A stretch of DNA of 19,312 bases from Candidatus Hodarchaeota archaeon (GCA_016839785.1 JAEOTQ010000002.1:1-19312); one strand, 5' to 3'. Shown: positions 2,089 to 12,720, counted from the stretch's first letter. Notes: generated from the letters alone by a model not told the origin. Numbers and translations are program-made.

Positions 2089-4464
2089 ATGTTAACCACA
2101 ATGGACGATTCTACTACTGAAATTATGCAAATGATTGCTGTAATGTTACAGTTATCTCAAAAACAGGTGTCCTCTACTCTTCAATTACTCAATGATGGGA
2201 ATACTGTTCCCTTTATTGCTCGTTATCGGAAAGAGAAAACCCAATCATTAGATGAAACTCAGATTAGAGCAATTGAGGAGAATTATCACGATTTAACACA
2301 GTTACATCTCGAAAGAAAGCGCGTTCATGATGTGGTAGAAGCACAAGGACAATTAACAGAGGAATTAGCCTCCAGCATTTTAAATGCTTCCAGTTTGGCC
2401 GAATTAAAAGAGATCTATAGGCCCTACAAACGAAAAAAGAAGACTAAGGGTTTAGTTGCACGGGAAAAAGGATTGGAACCTCTTGCCGAGATCATATTTG
2501 GAAAAACAGATTTTCCTGAGGGAAAATCATTAATTGAAATTGCAGAGCAATATATAAATTCCGAAGTGGGTGTATCTTCTACTGATGAGGCACTTGAGGG
2601 AGCTAGACATATTATTGCCGAAGATTTGTCAAATTCTACAACTATTCGTGATTTAATTAAGGAAAAATTCTTTAGCAAGGCCTTCTTCACAACAAAAAAA
2701 TCATTATTGTATGAGATGGATGAGGAGGAAGAAGAAACTAATTCGCAAAAAGTTATCCAAGGTAAAAAATATGAACAGTATTTCGAGTTTGAGGAATCTG
2801 CATTAAAAGTTCCTCCTCATCGTTTACTGGCAATGCTACGTGGAGATCGAGAAGGCATTTTGTCGTTTAAAGTAGTATTCCCTGATGAAGTTATTGTTAG
2901 AAAAATTACAGAGATCACCTCTTCTTCTTTGGACAGTAATCCGGAGATAAGTGAGCAGCTTGATCTTGCTATAAACGATAGTTGGAAGCGTTTACTTGGA
3001 CCGAGTTTGCAAAGAGAATTAAAGCGAATCCAATTTGAAAGGGCCCAACAACATTCAATCCAAGTCTTTGGAGAGAACCTAAAGCATTTACTACTTAGTC
3101 CTCCAATCCGATCACGAATTTTAGGGATAGATCCTGCATTTAGAACTGGTTGTAAATATGCTGCAATTGATGAAATGGGTAATGTCCTAGCGAGTGGTAC
3201 TGTTTATCCAACAAAGCCTCATGAGCAATATGAGAAATCAGCTAAAGTATTGAAAGATATAATTCAGAAACACAAGATCTCGATTATAGCAATTGGAAAT
3301 GGCACTGCTTCACGTGAAACTGAAGAATTCGTAAGTAAATATATAGCTAAAGGAACTGATTTAAATTACGTAATTGTGAATGAAGCAGGTGCTTCAGTAT
3401 ATAGTGCAAGCGATATAGCACGAAATGAATTTCCAGATTTAGATGTAAGTATAAGGGGTGCTGTTTCCATTGCCAGAAGATTACTAGATCCATTGGCAGA
3501 GTTGGTAAAAATCGATCCACGATCAATCGGGGTAGGCCAATACCAACATGATCTTGCTGGACTGTCTAAAGCATTAAAGGATGTAGTAGTTGATACTGTA
3601 AATTTAGTAGGTGCTGATGTAAATACTGCATCCGAAGTTTTACTGAAATATGTGAGTGGTATTACTAGTTCAGTAGCCAAAAATATTATCTCATACCGTA
3701 CAGAGAATGGCGCCTTTGTTTACCGTGATGATTTGAAAAGTGTCCCTGGAGTCGGGCCTCGTACGTTCGAGCAAAGTATTGGTTTTTTACGAATACCTGA
3801 CGCCCCAGATCCTTTTGACAACTCTCCTATCCATCCTGAATCCTATGAATTAGCAGAAAGTATCATTAAATTAGCCAAATTTTCGAAAAATGATTTAATT
3901 GCAAAGGAAAACCGGATACGTTTACAAAAACAACTTAAAATGCTTAATCCAACATTCGCAGCAAAACAATTACATCACGAAGATCTACTTGTGACAATTA
4001 CAGATATTATCGAGATCCTCCAAAATCCCTATCGTGATCCGAGAGATGACTTTGATAAACCCCTCCTTAAATCTTCGGTTTTAACGATAGAAGATTTAGA
4101 GGTAGGCAGTGTTGTTGAAGGAACTGTAACCAATGTTACGGATTTTGGCTGTTTTGTTGATCTTGGAGTTAAAACAAATGGCTTAATTCATATAAGCGAA
4201 ATAACAGAGAGCTTCATTAAACATCCTCGTGAAGCGGGATTAAAAGTTGGAGATATAGTAAAACCCCGAGTAAAAGATATTGACTTGGTTAAAAAGAGAA
4301 TTTCCCTTTCTTTGAAAAAAGAGGTAAGTAAAGCTAAAGATAAAGTGAGAAGAACTGCCAGAAGAGGGGATCCGTCCGTTAAACCAGTGAAGAAGCAGAA
4401 ACCTCAAACATTCGAAGATAAGAAAATTGATAGCTTGTTTAAGAACGGGAAAATTCAGTTATGA
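2089..4464 (+). CDS. tex: Tex-family RNA-binding transcription accessory protein (Tex_N, YqgF/RNase H-like, HhH, S1); true start may be 2101
   Basis: GNTVPFIARYRKEKT, YRPYKRKKKT, ILGIDPAFRTGCK, VNEAGASVYSAS, DPLAELVKIDPRSIGVGQYQHD, and S1 domain GTVTNVTDFGCFVDLG...GLIHISE. Confidence 0.96.
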   Translation: MLTTMDDSTTEIMQMIAVMLQLSQKQVSSTLQLLNDGNTVPFIARYRKEKTQSLDETQIRAIEENYHDLTQLHLERKRVHDVVEAQGQLTEELASSILNASSLAELKEIYRPYKRKKKTKGLVAREKGLEPLAEIIFGKTDFPEGKSLIEIAEQYINSEVGVSSTDEALEGARHIIAEDLSNSTTIRDLIKEKFFSKAFFTTKKSLLYEMDEEEEETNSQKVIQGKKYEQYFEFEESALKVPPHRLLAMLRGDREGILSFKVVFPDEVIVRKITEITSSSLDSNPEISEQLDLAINDSWKRLLGPSLQRELKRIQFERAQQHSIQVFGENLKHLLLSPPIRSRILGIDPAFRTGCKYAAIDEMGNVLASGTVYPTKPHEQYEKSAKVLKDIIQKHKISIIAIGNGTASRETEEFVSKYIAKGTDLNYVIVNEAGASVYSASDIARNEFPDLDVSIRGAVSIARRLLDPLAELVKIDPRSIGVGQYQHDLAGLSKALKDVVVDTVNLVGADVNTASEVLLKYVSGITSSVAKNIISYRTENGAFVYRDDLKSVPGVGPRTFEQSIGFLRIPDAPDPFDNSPIHPESYELAESIIKLAKFSKNDLIAKENRIRLQKQLKMLNPTFAAKQLHHEDLLVTITDIIEILQNPYRDPRDDFDKPLLKSSVLTIEDLEVGSVVEGTVTNVTDFGCFVDLGVKTNGLIHISEITESFIKHPREAGLKVGDIVKPRVKDIDLVKKRISLSLKKEVSKAKDKVRRTARRGDPSVKPVKKQKPQTFEDKKIDSLFKNGKIQL

Positions 4465-4584: not shown

Positions 4585-5292
4585 ATGATAGAAATTATTT
4601 ACTTAGGCAGTTTTTGGTTCTTTGCGGTACTTTATATTCTTGTGAAAAGTATAAAATCGAATGAAATTACGCTTAACTTTGGGATATTAACCAAACTGTC
4701 CCAATATAGTACAATTGTCAAAATTTTTCCAGCAGGAATAGCAATATTATTTACTTTGTCCGTTGGACATGAATCTATCTATTTATCACTCGTTTTGAGT
4801 ATAGGACTATTTTTTTGTTTGCTGGGAGATCTAGGTATGGAAAAAGGTTTAATTCCAGGCCTCCCTATCTTCTTAATAGCACAAATAATTCTTTTAGTAA
4901 CCTTTACAGGTCAAGCTCTTGAGATTGGAATAGCTACAGACTCTTTGTTATTAAGTGGAATTGTGGCTGTTGGAACCGCAGTATATATTCTCCTCTTTCT
5001 CCGCTATTTAGAATCTTCTGACAAAGGTTTGGGGAAATTTAGAACTCCAGTTTTAATCTATTGTGTATTCATTTCACTCATGTTAACGTCGACTGTTTTA
5101 CTTTGGACTACTTCAAGTGTGGCTGAATTTGGCATTGTTGTGTTTGGGGCATTATTATTTGTGATTTCTGATTCAATAATTGCTGTACGTGAGTTTCACC
5201 ATGATATTTCCTATCGAGAAATCAAAGTCATGAGTACTTATTATACAGCAATATTCCTCCTCTCACTAAGCCCACTTACAATTCTCATTTAA
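4585..5292 (+). CDS. YhhN/TMEM86 (lysoplasmalogenase-like) membrane protein
   Basis: About 8 hydrophobic segments. Family-like motifs: VKIFP, CLLGDLGM...GLPIFLIAQ, PVLIY, GALLFVISDSIIAVREF, STYY. Confidence 0.8.
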   Translation: MIEIIYLGSFWFFAVLYILVKSIKSNEITLNFGILTKLSQYSTIVKIFPAGIAILFTLSVGHESIYLSLVLSIGLFFCLLGDLGMEKGLIPGLPIFLIAQIILLVTFTGQALEIGIATDSLLLSGIVAVGTAVYILLFLRYLESSDKGLGKFRTPVLIYCVFISLMLTSTVLLWTTSSVAEFGIVVFGALLFVISDSIIAVREFHHDISYREIKVMSTYYTAIFLLSLSPLTILI

Positions 5293-5424
5293 GACATGAG
5301 AATCCACTAAGGTCAGCTCAAATTATTTATATTTCCTGAAAATGTAAGTGAATTATTAATCATTTTACTCTTAAATGAAAATATACCTTATGATCTTAGG
5401 ATTGTTTAAATAGAAGGTCATTAT

Positions 5425-8400
5425 ATGGAATTACAAGAAACGAAAGAACCTTTACCAGAAATAATAGGTCACTCTGGTGAATTAAGTACGTTAATAACGG
5501 ATCTAAAGACTGATATCAAAACAGGACTGAGTTCAAGCGAGGCAAACAAACGTCTAGAGGTTTATGGAGAGAATAAAATTCCTCAACCTAAGAAAAGTTT
5601 CTGGAAAGTCTATTTAGCTCCTCTGATGAATACATTGATTGTAATATACCTGTTGATGACTTCATTCATTCTAATGCTAGCGTTAATATATTTTCTATTC
5701 ATCGATCCTAAAGATACTAGCATTTGGTTTACTGCAATACAATGGCTGATCATTGTTGGTGTGAACTTTCTTATAGCAATTATCCAACAACAACGAGCCC
5801 AAAAACAAATCGAAGCATTACATAAAATGTCCGCTCCAGCTGCACGAGTAATTCGTGATGGAAAAGAGATTGAAATCTCAACAGAAATGGTAGTACCAGG
5901 AGATATTGTAATTCTCGCTCAAGGGGATAAAATTCCTGCCGATGCACGAATAATAAACTCGAGTTCTTTCCGTGTAAACGAATCCTCGTTGACTGGGGAA
6001 AGTGTTCCGGCAACAAAGGTTGAAGATGGCAATAAATCTTTTGAACATGACACTGTTATAGGGGAAAGGAAGAATATGGTTTACAATGGCACTTTCGTCA
6101 CTATGGGGTCAGGAAAACTCCTGGTTGTAAACACTGGTGGAAGGACTGAATTTGGAAAAATAAGCTTAGAACTGGCTGAATTGAATACTGGTGAAATTCC
6201 TATACGTCAAAAAGTGAATACTATTGGTAACTACCTTGCTGGAGGGATGATGATCGTATTTAGTCTTTTACTTGTTTATCAAGGTACAGTTATCCTTGAT
6301 AAGCTTGAGAAAGGAATAATTCCTCCTAATGACGCTCAAGCTTTAATTGGCCATATTATCTTTGATATTTCAAACATTATAATCAAAGCGATGTCGGTAG
6401 TACCAATTAACATTCCCCTCTTAACCACAATAATATTGATTACGGGAGTTTTGGCTATGGCTAAACATAGAGTAATCATTCGGAATCTGGCATCAATTGA
6501 GAGTTTAGGAAGAATTTCAATCCTGTGTTCTGACAAGACTGGTACAATCACTGCGGGTCAAATGACTGTAAAAGGAATTTGGAATGCTTCTTCAGATCAG
6601 CATTACTATGTAAGTGGGTTAGGTTATTCTCCAGAGGGTTATATCTCAGAAATTGAGGGAAAAACCCATATCAAAGTATCAGAAAAAGAAGCATTAAATT
6701 TAAAACCTATCGATGTTGATCTAGATTCTTCTCTTGGAATGCTAATTATCTCGGGCATGTTAAATAATGACTCAAACATTACAGAAGAAACTGTAGGAGA
6801 CCAAATAGTGTATGCAGGTACTGGATCTCCTACCGAGTCAGCACTTACGACTCTTTTTAATAAGAGTAAGCTTTCTGAAAAAAGTATTTCAAAAGACTAT
6901 AAGTTGATACGAGAATTTCCATTTGATTCTTCACTGAAACGTATGAGTAAGATTTTTGAAATTGATGGAAAGCCCAGAATATTTTGTAAGGGAGCTACGG
7001 AAGTATTATTGCCTCGTTGTTCGCAAATTGGATATGGAAAAGATAAAAAGAAACTATCGGATGATAATAAAAAGGAAATTATATCTGAAGTTGAAGCAGT
7101 TGCTGAACAAGGTTACCGCGTCCTTTCTTTAACCTATAGAGATCCTAAAAAACTTCCACCAAAAGATGATAAGGAAAGAGATCTAATTGAATCTGATTTG
7201 TGTTATCTCGGTTTCGTAAAAGTATTGGATCCTCCTCGTGATCTGGTAGATGAATCCGTTCAAGAAACTTTAGCTGCAGGAATCACACCTATTATGATTA
7301 CAGGTGATTCACCAATTACTGCGTCTTCTATTGCAATTAGCATTGGCCTTATGCGTCCTAAAGAGCATCAGACACACGAAGGACGGATGGCCACTCTCTT
7401 GAATGATCCTGATTTTCAAAATACCCGTGTCTTTGCCAGAGTAGCACCTCAAGATAAACAAACTATTATACAACGCTATCAGAATCAGAAGAGAGTAGTG
7501 GCTATGACAGGTGATGGTGTAAATGATGCGTTAGCTTTGAGTATGGCTGATGCAGGTATTGCTATGGGGATATCAGGGACAGAAGTTTCTAAACAAGCGG
7601 CAGATCTTGTGATTGCAGATGATTCATTCAATTCAATCGTAACTGGAATTCGAGAAGGGCGTGCTCTTTTTCAACGTATTCGGATAATTATATTCTTCTT
7701 TATAGCAATTAATCTAAGTGAAGCTGCATGCTATATTGGTGCATCGTTCATATCGGGTTTTATCCCAGGTTTTGAACTCATGGATCATATTCAACGGGCG
7801 TACATATTTGGAATTGCACATACATTACCCCCACTTGCGTTGATATTGGATCAAATTCCACGAGGTATAATGAATCGAGCCCCTATCGATTCAGCAGGGA
7901 TTTTCAATCGAAAACTTGCAGTAACTCTTATTGGAGTGGCAGTTAGCCTCGCTAGTGCTATATATCTTGTTTATTTCTCTACTTTCTTTGGTTTCATTCA
8001 ATTAAACGCAACCAATCAACAATTCTATATCCCAGTATTTCACGATGATCCCGGAGTAGCTACAAACAATTTACGGCCCCTTAGCTGGAACCATGCAAAA
8101 GCTCGAACTATGATGCATACTATCCTGTATTTAGCGATTCCTTTAATGATATTATCGATTCGTCGAATTGATGAGTCGTTCATTGATGCAATCAGGAAAG
8201 ATTCGTATTGGATTACCTATCTCTTAGCTTTCTCGATTCTCCCGATCCATCTTTCTCTTATGTATTTTCCAGTGCTTCAGGAGCTAGTTGCAGGAGTCGG
8301 AGTGTATGTTGATATAATTGGACTTTCTCTGGGAGATTGGCTAATCTGTCTAATCGCCGCTTCTGCACCTGTTTTGATTATTGAAGCTGCTAAGTGGGTT

Positions 8401-8427
8401 AACAGAACTCGAGGAGAATATTACTGA
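5425..8427 (+). CDS. P-type ATPase with P2A-like scaffold and non-canonical transport site (substrate unknown)
   Basis: GLSSSEA...YGEN, VPGDIV, IPADAR, ESSLTGES, CSDKTGT (phospho-Asp at 6532), FPFDSSLKRMS, KGATE, DPPR, MITGD, FARVAP and MTGDGVNDA motifs, with about 10 TM segments. M4 reads PINIP instead of PEGLP. Confidence 0.95.
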   Translation: MELQETKEPLPEIIGHSGELSTLITDLKTDIKTGLSSSEANKRLEVYGENKIPQPKKSFWKVYLAPLMNTLIVIYLLMTSFILMLALIYFLFIDPKDTSIWFTAIQWLIIVGVNFLIAIIQQQRAQKQIEALHKMSAPAARVIRDGKEIEISTEMVVPGDIVILAQGDKIPADARIINSSSFRVNESSLTGESVPATKVEDGNKSFEHDTVIGERKNMVYNGTFVTMGSGKLLVVNTGGRTEFGKISLELAELNTGEIPIRQKVNTIGNYLAGGMMIVFSLLLVYQGTVILDKLEKGIIPPNDAQALIGHIIFDISNIIIKAMSVVPINIPLLTTIILITGVLAMAKHRVIIRNLASIESLGRISILCSDKTGTITAGQMTVKGIWNASSDQHYYVSGLGYSPEGYISEIEGKTHIKVSEKEALNLKPIDVDLDSSLGMLIISGMLNNDSNITEETVGDQIVYAGTGSPTESALTTLFNKSKLSEKSISKDYKLIREFPFDSSLKRMSKIFEIDGKPRIFCKGATEVLLPRCSQIGYGKDKKKLSDDNKKEIISEVEAVAEQGYRVLSLTYRDPKKLPPKDDKERDLIESDLCYLGFVKVLDPPRDLVDESVQETLAAGITPIMITGDSPITASSIAISIGLMRPKEHQTHEGRMATLLNDPDFQNTRVFARVAPQDKQTIIQRYQNQKRVVAMTGDGVNDALALSMADAGIAMGISGTEVSKQAADLVIADDSFNSIVTGIREGRALFQRIRIIIFFFIAINLSEAACYIGASFISGFIPGFELMDHIQRAYIFGIAHTLPPLALILDQIPRGIMNRAPIDSAGIFNRKLAVTLIGVAVSLASAIYLVYFSTFFGFIQLNATNQQFYIPVFHDDPGVATNNLRPLSWNHAKARTMMHTILYLAIPLMILSIRRIDESFIDAIRKDSYWITYLLAFSILPIHLSLMYFPVLQELVAGVGVYVDIIGLSLGDWLICLIAASAPVLIIEAAKWVNRTRGEYY

Positions 8428-8931: not shown

Positions 8932-10125
8932 TTAAGCAATTCCAGGGAATAATTCCTCTAGTTTCTTTTGATTGTGTGAGAGAGGTTCCTCAAACATCTT
9001 CCTCAATTGTGGAATTCCCTTTTTGGTACCCAATAAGATAATCGCTTTTATCTTGTCATCTTCATGGAAAATCTTCATATATTCATTAGATTCATCGTTT
9101 ATGTACTTTATGAATTGATAATCAGCTTGATTTGCATCATACCCAATAGAAGTAAGAAAGAGATCCGCAACTTTTAGGGTTGTTGACATTCTTGATCCAT
9201 GATACTCTCTCGATCGTGGTGAAATCAAATTTTCAACTACTACTCTCGATTGTTCAGTTGTTGGGGGAATAATACCATATACTCTTCCTTCATGTTCTGC
9301 CATGTCACCAACGGCAAAAATATTAGGATCCGATGTTTCGAGGTAATCATTAACAACCACACCACGGTTTACATCTAAACCAGCCTTTTTAGCTAGTGCA
9401 ATACGAGGTTTTATACCTGTACATGTCATTACAATGTCAGCTGGTATTAACCGTCCATCTTTCAACTGGATGCTTTCCACTACACTATCTCCTAGAATTT
9501 CTTTTACTTGAGCGCTAGTTATGATTCCTACCCCATATTTAGCTAATAATTCAGTAAAAATCTTGCTTCCTTCAGGATCTAGCTGTCGGGGTAACATATG
9601 GGGAAAAAATTCGATTATCGTCGTTTTTAGTCCATGTTTCGCACACGCAATGGCGTTTTCGATCCCGAGTAATCCTCCTCCAATTATTACAGCAGATTGA
9701 CTTAATTCAAGTTGATTTCGTATTGTAATTGCATCAGCTAATGTTCTGAGGGTATAGGCATGCTCTAATTCAAGTCCTGGAATGGGTGGACAAGCACAAC
9801 TTGCCCCTTGTGCCAGAAGTAATTTATCATAGTCATATTCACCTTTTTCAGATACAACTTTCTTCTCTTTTCGGTTTATGGAATGAATTTTCTCATTCGG
9901 ATGAAAATCTATCTTCGATTCATTGTACCAATCTTTGGTGTATATCATGAGATCTTCAGGTGACTGGGTTTTATCTCCCAGGAATTGTGGTAATTTTGGA
10001 CGAGAATAATATCCATATGGTTCAGTTGTGAATTGAAGGACTTTTGATCCTGGAGGTGCTTTTTGAATCAATGACCTAGCTACTGTGACACCAGCAACCC
10101 CGTTACCGATGATAATGTAATTCAT
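8932..10125 (-). CDS. FAD-dependent NAD(P)H oxidoreductase, NADH:rubredoxin oxidoreductase/NirB N-terminal-like
   Basis: IIIGNGVAG (FAD), YSRPKLP, YDKLLLAQGA, VIIGGGLLGIE (NAD), TSDPNIFAVGDMAE and TTLKV motifs. AGAGGT RBS. Downstream of superoxide reductase. Confidence 0.9.
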   Translation of the reverse strand: MNYIIIGNGVAGVTVARSLIQKAPPGSKVLQFTTEPYGYYSRPKLPQFLGDKTQSPEDLMIYTKDWYNESKIDFHPNEKIHSINRKEKKVVSEKGEYDYDKLLLAQGASCACPPIPGLELEHAYTLRTLADAITIRNQLELSQSAVIIGGGLLGIENAIACAKHGLKTTIIEFFPHMLPRQLDPEGSKIFTELLAKYGVGIITSAQVKEILGDSVVESIQLKDGRLIPADIVMTCTGIKPRIALAKKAGLDVNRGVVVNDYLETSDPNIFAVGDMAEHEGRVYGIIPPTTEQSRVVVENLISPRSREYHGSRMSTTLKVADLFLTSIGYDANQADYQFIKYINDESNEYMKIFHEDDKIKAIILLGTKKGIPQLRKMFEEPLSHNQKKLEELFPGIA

Positions 10126-10202
10126 ATTGTTTTACCTCTTCTAGTTAAATTCATGGCTAGTAGATGTACAAATACGAGAGAATTATAAAAAAATAAGTAG
10201 AG

Positions 10203-10227
10203 AAAAAAGAAGGGATATTTACCCTTC
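10203..10227 (-). terminator. Hairpin plus U-tract terminator after the superoxide reductase gene
   Basis: Minus strand reads GAAGGG-TAAATAT-CCCTTC-TTTTTT, starting a few nt after the stop codon at 10232. Confidence 0.6.
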
Positions 10228-10231
10228 AAAC

Positions 10232-10624
10232 CTAAACGGTAAGTTTTGCTTCAGAGCGCCAAAGCCCGTGGATGTTGCAGTAAGAGAATGCAATCAAAGT
10301 TCCTGATTTTTGTGTTTTTAACGCAAAAAGTCCTTTAGGTTCTGTGTACACGGTTGAAGTATCAGGACCTGCTGCTGATTCTCCGTGTGCAGTGAATTCG
10401 ACCTTACCAACTTGGAGAGGGAATTTTTCACCATCAGGTAAGAAAAACAATGAGATCCATGAAATATGATGATTTGTTTGATTGGGGTGGGCAATTTCTT
10501 TCCCCACTAATACCTTTATGAAGACAAAATCTTTGTCTTCCTTCTCTTTAATCTTAATAACTGGCGAGTGTTTTTCTGTTTTCCAATCGGCTGACTGGAA
10601 GAGTTCCTCAAAATTAATATCCAT
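10232..10624 (-). CDS. sor: Superoxide reductase, 1Fe/neelaredoxin type (class II SORL)
   Basis: Complete Fe ligand set: EKH, HP-x4-HHISWI and YCNIHGLW. No N-terminal desulforedoxin domain. Confidence 0.95.
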   Translation of the reverse strand: MDINFEELFQSADWKTEKHSPVIKIKEKEDKDFVFIKVLVGKEIAHPNQTNHHISWISLFFLPDGEKFPLQVGKVEFTAHGESAAGPDTSTVYTEPKGLFALKTQKSGTLIAFSYCNIHGLWRSEAKLTV

Positions 10625-12036: not shown

Positions 12037-12720
12037 TTATACAGGATCAACGAACAGGGTAGCTGCAAAATCTAAAGGTATTACGTACTCAGATCCTTCC
12101 TTATCAATTACCACACCCTTTTTGGAAGAATTCATTACAATGAATATTTCTCCTATCCCTTTGATTCCATAGTCAAGAAGTTTGGTTGCTGTTTCATAAT
12201 TATGAATCGAGATTCGAGTTAAAACGACTTTTGATCCCTTAGGAGTGTCTATGATAGTTTGATCTGAACATGCAAAATCCTCATTTGTAGACATAGGAAT
12301 CATAATACCAAAAGGTGTCTTCTTTTCTGGAAGTGCTGCGTAAATGTGCTTGGCCATTTCATCAGAAATTGCATGTTCTAGAAGACATGCCTGTTCATGT
12401 ATGGTATCAAAAGGCATGTGAAAGAGTTGAAAAAGCATGGCCTCTGCTAATCTATGGTTCCGAGCGATTTTTTGAGCTACTTGGAATCCCTTATCGGTAA
12501 GACGCACTCCTTCATATGGAGTATAGCGCACATATCCAAGTTTTTCAAGTTTTCTCTGAACTATATTTGTTAATTGTGTTTTTGAAATCTGAGGACCAAT
12601 CCGTTCGAGAATTTGCTTCATTTTTAAATAGGAATCGTCACAAAGAGACAGATGAAGGTCAAAAAGAGCTTCCATGATTTCTTCTTCGATATCTCTAAGT
12701 TTATGAGGTTTTAAATGCAC
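12037..12720 (-). CDS. DtxR/MntR/SirR-family metal-dependent transcriptional regulator with C-terminal FeoA-like domain
   Basis: wHTH wing GYVRYTPYEGVRLTDKG. Metal sites RNHRLAE and HEQACLLEHAIS, then TPFGIMIP. GTG start. Confidence 0.9.
   Translation of the reverse strand: MHLKPHKLRDIEEEIMEALFDLHLSLCDDSYLKMKQILERIGPQISKTQLTNIVQRKLEKLGYVRYTPYEGVRLTDKGFQVAQKIARNHRLAEAMLFQLFHMPFDTIHEQACLLEHAISDEMAKHIYAALPEKKTPFGIMIPMSTNEDFACSDQTIIDTPKGSKVVLTRISIHNYETATKLLDYGIKGIGEIFIVMNSSKKGVVIDKEGSEYVIPLDFAATLFVDPV

Follow-up and report, generated by a model that had tools for sequence, protein, structure and literature searches.

Which cargo is moved by a P-type ATPase whose membrane helix M4 has isoleucine in place of the glutamate of the PEGL motif? 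The question is raised by a gene at positions 5425–8427 of a 19,312-nucleotide stretch of DNA from a Candidatus Hodarchaeota archaeon (GCA_016839785.1, JAEOTQ010000002.1:1–19312), which was analysed at its full length and is called the window below. The initial annotation, made from the sequence of the window, described a P2A-like scaffold with an altered transport site, doubted the label 'Ca2+-ATPase' and suggested kinship with the P4 lipid flippases. We find that the altered site belongs to a large and apparently undescribed Asgard family of P-type pumps, and that the window pump is not a relative of the P4 flippases. Going by the residues that the family keeps, we give an even chance to the proposal that the pump no longer moves Ca2+ and would instead carry one small cation per cycle on a Glu766–His799 pair.

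Catalytic machinery and transport site of the window pump

Conservation was read from three sets of sequences: an unselected set, the 120 best hits of a word-indexed search (42–100% identity to the window protein); a family alignment of 134 full-length members out of 139 picked by a regular expression for M4, the five shorter ones being left out; and 30 diverse family representatives. Counts of M4 residues in the family alignment are circular, since its members were selected on M4, and were not used; only columns outside the selection were taken as informative. The gene and the motifs on which the analysis turns are as follows.

5425–8427, plus strand: P-type ATPase gene, 1000 amino acids (P0001), a single stop-free open reading frame
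5992–6003, plus strand: dephosphorylation motif TGES of the actuator (A) domain, residues 190–193; shared by 117 of the 120 best homologues, the other three being partial sequences with gaps here
6403–6417, plus strand: M4 motif PINIP, residues 327–331; Ile328 at the position of the PEGL Glu, Asn329 at that of the Gly
6532–6546, plus strand: phosphorylation motif DKTGT with Asp370, kept in 120/120 homologues
6988–6996, plus strand: KGA of the nucleotide-binding (N) domain with the ATP-binding Lys522; Lys522 and Gly523 invariant in the 30 representatives, Gly523 also in the family alignment
7228–7239, plus strand: DPPR of the phosphorylation (P) domain; Asp602 and Pro603 invariant
7300–7308, plus strand: P-domain TGD; Thr626, Gly627 and Asp628 invariant
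7510–7527, plus strand: hinge motif GDGVND, followed by AL where AP is usual; Leu703 is the family consensus
7711–7722, plus strand: M5 NLSE, with Asn763 and Glu766 at SERCA N768 and E771 in the alignment to SERCA1a
7792–7842, plus strand: M6 QRAYIFGIAHTLPPLAL, with Phe795 at N796, Ala798 at T799 and His799 (codon 7819–7821) at D800
8101–8154, plus strand: M8 ARTMMHTILYLAIPLMIL, with Ile905 (codon 8137–8139) and the variable His898

The window protein has the full cation-pump set of Pfam domains (Cation_ATPase_N, E1-E2_ATPase with 139 bits, Cation_ATPase, Hydrolase and Cation_ATPase_C) and passes the P-type superfamily model TIGR01494 (HAD-IC) with 266.3 bits against a cut-off of 62.3. DKTGT, TGES, TGD and GDGVND were all located in it, as expected of a member of the P-type superfamily. 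The initial annotation had called the cytoplasmic catalytic motifs intact, and TGES, DKTGT, KGA, DPPR, TGD and GDGVND indeed all lie within the open frame of 1000 residues. The motifs and the fold show the machinery of ATP hydrolysis and the E1/E2 cycle to be ordinary, as in a working P-type ATPase.

The register of the transport site was taken from solved pumps. Against PDB sequences, phmmer gave the window protein 356 bits with Listeria LMCA1, 319 with SERCA1, 298 with SPCA1 and 282 with Na,K-ATPase. For SERCA the alignment was to chain 5zmv_A, which carries the E309A mutation and is numbered +6, and was converted by hand to SERCA1a numbers. In M4, P327 corresponds to P308, I328 to position 309, N329 to G310 and P331 to P312; in M5 and M6, N763 corresponds to N768, E766 to E771, F795 to N796, A798 to T799 and H799 to D800, M6 being aligned without gaps. 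The alignment to LMCA1 led to the same register from M4 to M6. PINIP was thus found exactly where the initial annotation had placed it, with Ile328 at the E309 position in both alignments, and the spacing that it had reported from the M4 proline to the phosphorylated aspartate (Pro327 to Asp370, 43 residues) recurs in a PEGL paralogue of the same genome (contig C1). Its gapless M6 changes (N796 to Phe, T799 to Ala and D800 to His) were reproduced, and the M5 NxxE that it had seen to survive aligned with SERCA N768 and E771. Set against the residues that mark a P2A pump, the window protein lacks the PEGL Glu of M4 and the Asn796 and Asp800 of M6, and retains the Asn768 and Glu771 of M5.

Conservation, extent and ancestry of the family

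Among the 120 best hits, M4 reads PINIP in 101, PISIP in 15, PINIT in two, and PITIP and PIAIP in one each. A P-I-x-I form is common to these homologues, with P-I in 120/120, and none of them carries PEGL, so the changes at the site are not peculiar to the window copy. Outside M4, the family alignment shows Glu766 of M5 in 134/134 members and Asn763 in 127/134. In M6, His799 is present in 133/134 (with a single Gln), Pro802 in 133/134 and Gln790 in 131/134; the aromatic residues are somewhat less constant (Tyr793 in 113/134 and Phe795 in 109/134), and Arg791 occurs in only 79/134. Because all 120 best hits have P-I at M4 and none has PEGL, while Glu766, His799, Gln790, Pro802 and Asn763 are kept, we regard the site as being under purifying selection. 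A decaying gene or an assembly artefact is a negligible possibility: the frame is open, the motifs are intact, homologues from many separate assemblies and sources carry this site as well, and nothing was found in favour of decay.

The initial annotation had also singled out Arg, Phe and His of M6 and a His of M8 for a test of conservation. His799 and, in most members, Phe795 are kept; Arg791 is far less constant, and His898 is variable, with His in only 62/134 members (Leu in 38, Val in 14, Ile in 10, Met in five and Phe in three). The absence of an acidic residue from M8 held for the window's own sub-clade and not for the family. Position 905, which we take to be that of SERCA E908 (from an alignment to PEGL homologues, not from a direct SERCA alignment), is Glu in 100 of the 134 members and Ile in 32, among them the window protein; one member has Leu and one Gln. 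The 32 carriers of Ile905 are essentially those sequences at least 63% identical to the window protein, that is, its own sub-clade, and among the 30 diverse representatives the M8 Glu is at least 90% conserved. Lack of an acid in M8 is a trait of this lineage and not of the family. Compared with PEGL pumps, 14 positions are specific to the family, and include Pro66 for Gln in M1, Asn329 for Gly and Leu332 for Ala in M4, His799 for Asp in M6, and Leu703 for the Pro of GDGVNDAP. Leu703 is found in 84% of 31 family representatives, whereas 97% of 89 PEGL representatives have Pro at this position.

Databases name the homologues as Hodarchaeales, Heimdall-, Thor-, Odin-, Njord- and Helarchaeota, in keeping with the Asgard origin assumed in the initial annotation, and mostly label them 'cation-translocating' or 'Ca2+-transporting' ATPase. 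In a HMMER search over representatives at 50% identity, an M4 of the form P-hydrophobic-N/S-hydrophobic together with the M6 His reached down to about 34–36% identity, and below about 440 bits pumps with PEGL, N..E and N..D took over. The basal branch of the family (P0154) has relatives at 59% identity that are named Helarchaeota and Promethearchaeota, the next sequences being canonical P2A pumps at 36–41%; one deeper member is named Korarchaeota. The Protein Atlas returned the window protein's own cluster, with 327 members and Promethearchaeota as the commonest phylum, and otherwise ordinary bacterial Ca2+-pump clusters. In a survey of 301 sampled genomes of the window's phylum, a match to the window protein at E ≤ 1e-150 was found in 209/301 genomes, 72/90 high-quality genomes and 51/70 genera. 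Many of the genomes carry a second copy, and there are families in which every genome searched lacks the gene. Two family subtypes stand head to tail in tandem in other Asgard genomes (L141:6995–12966 and L142:6989–12934), their M6 segments reading 'QW..L..TLH' and 'QHIY..IVH', and in genome G025 two family copies lie 460 bases apart on contig C86.

The window's genome, which is 84.5% complete, has one family copy. It also encodes two canonical P2A pumps of the PEGL and NxxE/D type, on contigs C1 (about 5.3–9.1 kb) and C56 (about 2.9–7.9 kb) with frames of 923 and 946 amino acids, as well as two CPC-type P1B pumps, on C198 and (partial) on C212. In a database of genome contigs, a locus search with the family alignment that seeded on generic P-type motifs recovered only ordinary P2A pumps, at about 30% identity. 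Since the same genome encodes two PEGL pumps, the new pump type is an addition to its calcium pumps and not a replacement for them.

We placed the family in a tree of 69 rows and 967 columns, built by a quick IQ-TREE search under LG+G4 with support from the Shimodaira–Hasegawa-like approximate likelihood ratio test (SH-aLRT). To 30 family members and 30 PEGL pumps (every third eligible) were added both PEGL paralogues of the window's genome, two P3A pumps from cyanobacteria with scores above the TIGR01647 cut-off (1040 and 1013 bits), three sub-threshold P3-like genes and one P2-like gene of Bathyarchaeial origin; the P1B pump of the window's genome served as the outgroup. The 30 family representatives formed one clade (SH-aLRT 100, stem length 0.31) inside a 62-row clade (support 97) shared with prokaryotic PEGL pumps, in which the order of lineages was not resolved. 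The P3A and P3-like rows fell outside the 62-row clade, with P3A as a separate clade (support 100). When only columns of the A, P and N domains were used (521 kept), the family was again one clade (support 97); residues of the membrane part therefore cannot drive the grouping. The initial annotation had called for a P-type phylogeny; ours, which samples prokaryotic sequences, groups the family with PEGL pumps of P2A-like type and separates it from P3A. It is a plausible reading, to which we give about equal weight for and against, that the family is one distinct, ancient and mostly Asgard-archaeal sub-family with a single origin from PEGL-type (P2A-like) calcium pumps.

References above the cut-off for P2C (TIGR01106) and P3B (TIGR01524) were sought in five genomes, which yielded none, only sub-threshold P3-like genes. 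One P3-like ATPase (L154, on contig C13 of cyanobacterium G305) scores 403 bits on TIGR01647, below its cut-off, reads LPNEFP at M4, another uncommon form of the transport site, and is unrelated to the family.

Every curated NCBIfam subfamily cut-off, including those for Ca2+, Na+/K+, H+ and Mg2+ pumps, was missed by the window protein, with scores (and cut-offs) in bits of 421 (645) for IID, 400.6 (798.3) for the PMR1-type model TIGR01522, 393.4 (703.4) for the SERCA-type TIGR01116, 381 (507) for the PMCA type, 322 (946) for IIC, 309.9 (615.5) for IIIA (TIGR01647), 293 (611) for IIIB, 258 (618) for P5 and 89.5 (431.25) for P4 (TIGR01652). Over the 30 representatives, the best E-values were 3e-162 for the PMR1 type, 3e-149 for the SERCA type, 5e-133 for IID, 4e-124 for IIB, 1e-122 for IIC, 5e-112 for IIIA, 2e-109 for IIIB, 9e-85 for P5, 7.2e-73 for P1B (TIGR01525) and 1.9e-43 for P4. 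An affinity with fungal P2D (IID) pumps, suggested by the top match of the window protein itself, was rejected, as the PMR1- and SERCA-type models are best across the 30 members. The initial annotation was right to distrust the calcium label, given that the changes at the site are conserved family-wide and that all curated Ca2+ cut-offs are missed; a distinct sub-family with an altered substrate, as it proposed, would be the natural reading of such conserved changes.

These scores also bear on the possibility that the pump moves an alkaline-earth ion (Ca2+ or Mg2+) through an unusual single site, as the database annotations have it. In sequence and fold the pump is closest to LMCA1, SERCA and SPCA1, the M5 N..E pair is retained, and homologues are named 'Ca2+-transporting ATPase'. 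Moreover, pumps of the P6 group typified by CtpE lack the M6 Asp and are nevertheless reported to move Ca2+, according to the portion of a 2023 review drawn on here (PMC10654040). However, three of the five SERCA ligand positions that were checked hold residues that are not ligands (I328, F795 and A798) and D800 is His, the NCBIfam cut-offs for Ca2+ and Mg2+ pumps are missed widely (for example, 393 bits against 703), and the two canonical PEGL pumps of the same genome argue for a different job. We consider an alkaline-earth cargo improbable.

A confident AlphaFold2 model made with the family alignment (predicted local distance difference test score, pLDDT, 89; predicted template-modelling score, pTM, 0.83) was compared with the PDB using Foldseek. 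The best 50 matches were all P2 pumps (SPCA1, SERCA, Na,K-ATPase and H,K-ATPase, TMq 0.58–0.74), with no P4 or P5 structure among them. The top matches were E2P-like (SPCA1 early E2P and SERCA2b E2-BeF3, TMq 0.70–0.74), followed by Na,K- and H,K-ATPases.

Descent from, or a common stem with, the eukaryotic P4 flippases had been suggested by the Ile beside the conserved M4 Pro and by the Asgard host, and these remain the only points in its favour. The protein has TGES and not DGET, which is the P4 dephosphorylation motif in the part of a P4 review used here (PMC4937031); the P4 model gives 89.5 bits, and over 30 members it reaches 1.9e-43 at best, where the PMR1 type reaches 3e-162; the fold neighbours are all P2; and the tree sets the family among PEGL P2A-like pumps. 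Nor is the isoleucine, which the initial annotation took for the P4 hallmark, exclusive to P4. According to the same part of that review, the P4 Ile does sit at the position of the PEGL Glu, but AHA2 and other P3-ATPases likewise have Ile or Val at this position (PMC4937031); our two P3A references read PVAMP. Because P3 pumps share Ile or Val, the Ile after the M4 Pro is homoplastic. Compared with PISL, the Pro-Ile is shared; the third residue is Asn (Ser in 15/120), and the fourth is Ile and not Leu, followed by Pro as in P2 and P3 pumps. A search for CDC50 (PF03381) gave no match in the window's genome, with a control search that was positive in no genome. We conclude that the pump is not a P4 relative, a relationship that we find barely credible, and that there is no support here for an archaeal origin of lipid flippases.

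Candidate cargoes and genomic neighbourhood

The transport cycle that we propose would keep the cytoplasmic steps of any P2 pump and change the cargo. Site II for Ca2+ in SERCA would be plugged by hydrophobic side chains, with Ile328 for Glu309 and Phe795 for Asn796. The central pocket would be cut down to the invariant Glu766 of M5 and to His799 of M6, in place of the universal Asp800, with Asn763 and Asn329 on its flanks; the window's lineage has lost an M8 Glu that most relatives keep. Two invariant ionisable residues with varying polar neighbours (Asn329 is Ser in 17/134 members, and the M8 Glu is absent from 34/134) fit a proton or another small monovalent ion better than a metal site with many ligands. 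The favoured cargo would be H+, possibly in an H+-coupled mode, with a working like that of P3A pumps but without membership of P3A. Taken alone, H+ is the likeliest candidate, and a tentative one; Na+ or K+ is less likely. That the pump is an electrogenic Glu–His proton pump which energises the Asgard cell membrane, as P3A or P2C pumps do in eukaryotes, is possible but doubtful.

Several observations weigh against a proton pump of this kind. P3A pumps keep an M6 Asp and an M5 Arg, and the family has neither; the candidate counter-charge, Arg791, is found in only 79/134 members; and the family lies outside the P3 clade. A site of His, Glu and Asn would serve a transition metal just as well. 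Comparison of neighbouring genes across the family's lineages gave no functional clue, the substrate is inferred from sequence, and the geometry of the site comes from alignment only. The tree, for its part, was a quick search rooted on one long P1B branch and without eukaryotic P2, P4 or P5 sequences.

Two of the window's other genes entered into the choice of cargo, and two further loci were noted.

12037–12720, minus strand: metal-dependent repressor of the DtxR/MntR type (Fe_dep_repr_C, Pfam)
4585–5292, plus strand: YhhN-family membrane protein (PF07947, 95 bits), 133 bases upstream of the pump
2089–4464, plus strand: Tex-like protein, 791 amino acids, with Tex_N, Tex central, YqgF, HHH and S1 domains
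8932–10624, minus strand: rubredoxin-reductase-like flavoprotein (397 amino acids) and an adjoining desulfoferrodoxin-type superoxide reductase (130 amino acids)

The main rival to a proton or other small monovalent ion is a transition metal. A ligand set of His, carboxylate and carboxamide is typical of transition metals, and Mn2+, Fe2+, Zn2+, Co2+ or Ni2+ might be bound by His799, Glu766, Asn763 and Asn329, joined in most relatives by the M8 Glu. The family keeps His799 (133/134) and Glu766 (134/134), and the repressor gene at 12037–12720 has a homologue 3–6 kb from the pump in 5/5 long loci of the same genus. The repressor, however, is 3.6 kb away on the opposite strand with several unrelated genes between, and belongs to a syntenic block found genus-wide only, being present in 0/15 loci from other families. 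In addition, the window protein has no N-terminal metal-binding domain, parts of the family do without two of the candidate ligands (Asn329 and the M8 Glu), and no riboswitch or other Rfam element was matched in a scan of the window. A transition-metal pump is unlikely in our estimate, if less so than the remaining alternatives.

It is also conceivable that a P2A scaffold came by convergence to move a lipid head group or an organic cation, in the manner of a flippase or P5 pump. The M4 residue is hydrophobic, as in the PISL of P4, and PISIP occurs in 15/120 best hits; the acidic M6 ligand is lost, and M6 has Tyr793, Phe795 and a Pro-Pro pair. YhhN proteins are lysoplasmalogenase-like, and a gene of this family stands upstream of the pump on the same strand. 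On the other hand, the motif is TGES and not DGET, and an invariant, putatively buried Glu–His pair with the M5 N..E looks like an ion site. The P4 model gives the weakest score of the P-type subfamilies except for the ZntA, CopA and KdpB models, and no P4 or P5 structure is among the 50 best fold matches. The YhhN gene, moreover, accompanies the pump, directly or at a short distance, in the window's genus alone (5/29 short loci; 4/5 long loci of the genus against 0/15 others). None of our tests speaks for a lipid or organic cargo, and we hold it to be slightly more improbable still than an alkaline-earth ion. If true, however, it would mean that a pump derived from P2A and carried by nearly all archaeal relatives of eukaryotes had convergently exchanged metal ions for a cargo of another kind, either an organic cation or the head group of an archaeal lipid, which would pass a hydrophobic gate in M4. 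It would thus represent a second, independent invention of flippase- or P5-like activity.

With respect to expression, the AT-rich spacer of 132 bases before the pump gene (5293–5424) contains a TTTATATA box, and transcription of the pump gene may start from an archaeal promoter of its own and not jointly with that of the YhhN gene. In other lineages the neighbours of the pump include a subtilase, a pantoate transferase, a Mo-oxidoreductase domain protein and a nucleotidyltransferase, and among the loci compared no neighbour is conserved across the family. The Tex-like protein at 2089–4464, a full Tex/Spt6-like protein in an Asgard genome, has weaker matches to SPT6-type YqgF and HHH_7 models. 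The flavoprotein and superoxide reductase look like a pair with which an anaerobe defends itself against oxygen.

It is the chemistry of the transport site that defines a P-type ATPase family, and new families are rare. An invariant Glu–His pair was seen in no characterised P2 or P3 pump among those compared. A search of the literature on Asgard P-type ATPases, the PINIP motif and uncharacterised prokaryotic P-type families found no description of this family. In the text consulted, a study of Asgard transport proteins reports no more than 'a putative Ca2+ ATPase (TC 3.A.3.2.21)', present in each of its five proteomes (PMC7997004). The sections used here of the 2023 review, which make no mention of the family, count one P-type family added since 1998 and expect more from prokaryotes (PMC10654040). 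The clade is present in about 70% of sampled Asgard genomes and is annotated everywhere as a calcium pump. Identifying its substrate would correct thousands of annotations, and would bear on ion handling and membrane energisation in the archaeal lineage nearest to eukaryotes.

Comparison with known P-type ATPases

The closest likeness is to P2A pumps such as LMCA1 (PDB 6zhf and 9euq), SERCA1/2 and SPCA1. They share with the window pump ten transmembrane helices, the A, P and N domains, the motifs TGES, DKTGT and GDGVND, the P-x-x-x-P unwinding of M4 and the M5 N..E. The window pump differs from them in M4 (Glu to Ile and Gly to Asn), in M6 (Asn796 to Phe, Thr799 to Ala and Asp800 to His) and at the hinge, where AP has become AL.

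Plant AHA2 and fungal Pma1 are P3A plasma-membrane H+-ATPases. Where P2A pumps have the M4 Glu, pumps of this type and the window pump alike have a hydrophobic residue framed by P-x-x-x-P (PVAMP against PINIP). The central site is much reduced in both, and it is with the P3A pumps that we propose a functional analogy. The membrane residues are nonetheless distinct: the two P3A references have LLNDG in M6 and ETIR in M5, where the family has IAHT and NLSE. P4 flippases (ATP8A2 and Drs2) likewise have Ile after the conserved M4 Pro, and some relatives of the window pump read PISIP, but the flippases carry DGET and the family TGES.

Finally, the P6 ATPases, the group of Mycobacterium tuberculosis CtpE, offer a parallel. 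In the portion of the 2023 review that describes them (PMC10654040), these prokaryotic pumps combine a P2-like scaffold with loss of the M6 Asp, and are treated as a family of their own. By that description, to which the comparison is confined, PEGL is retained in CtpE and Ile stands in for the M6 Asp, whereas the window family has replaced PEGL and has His at the M6 position.

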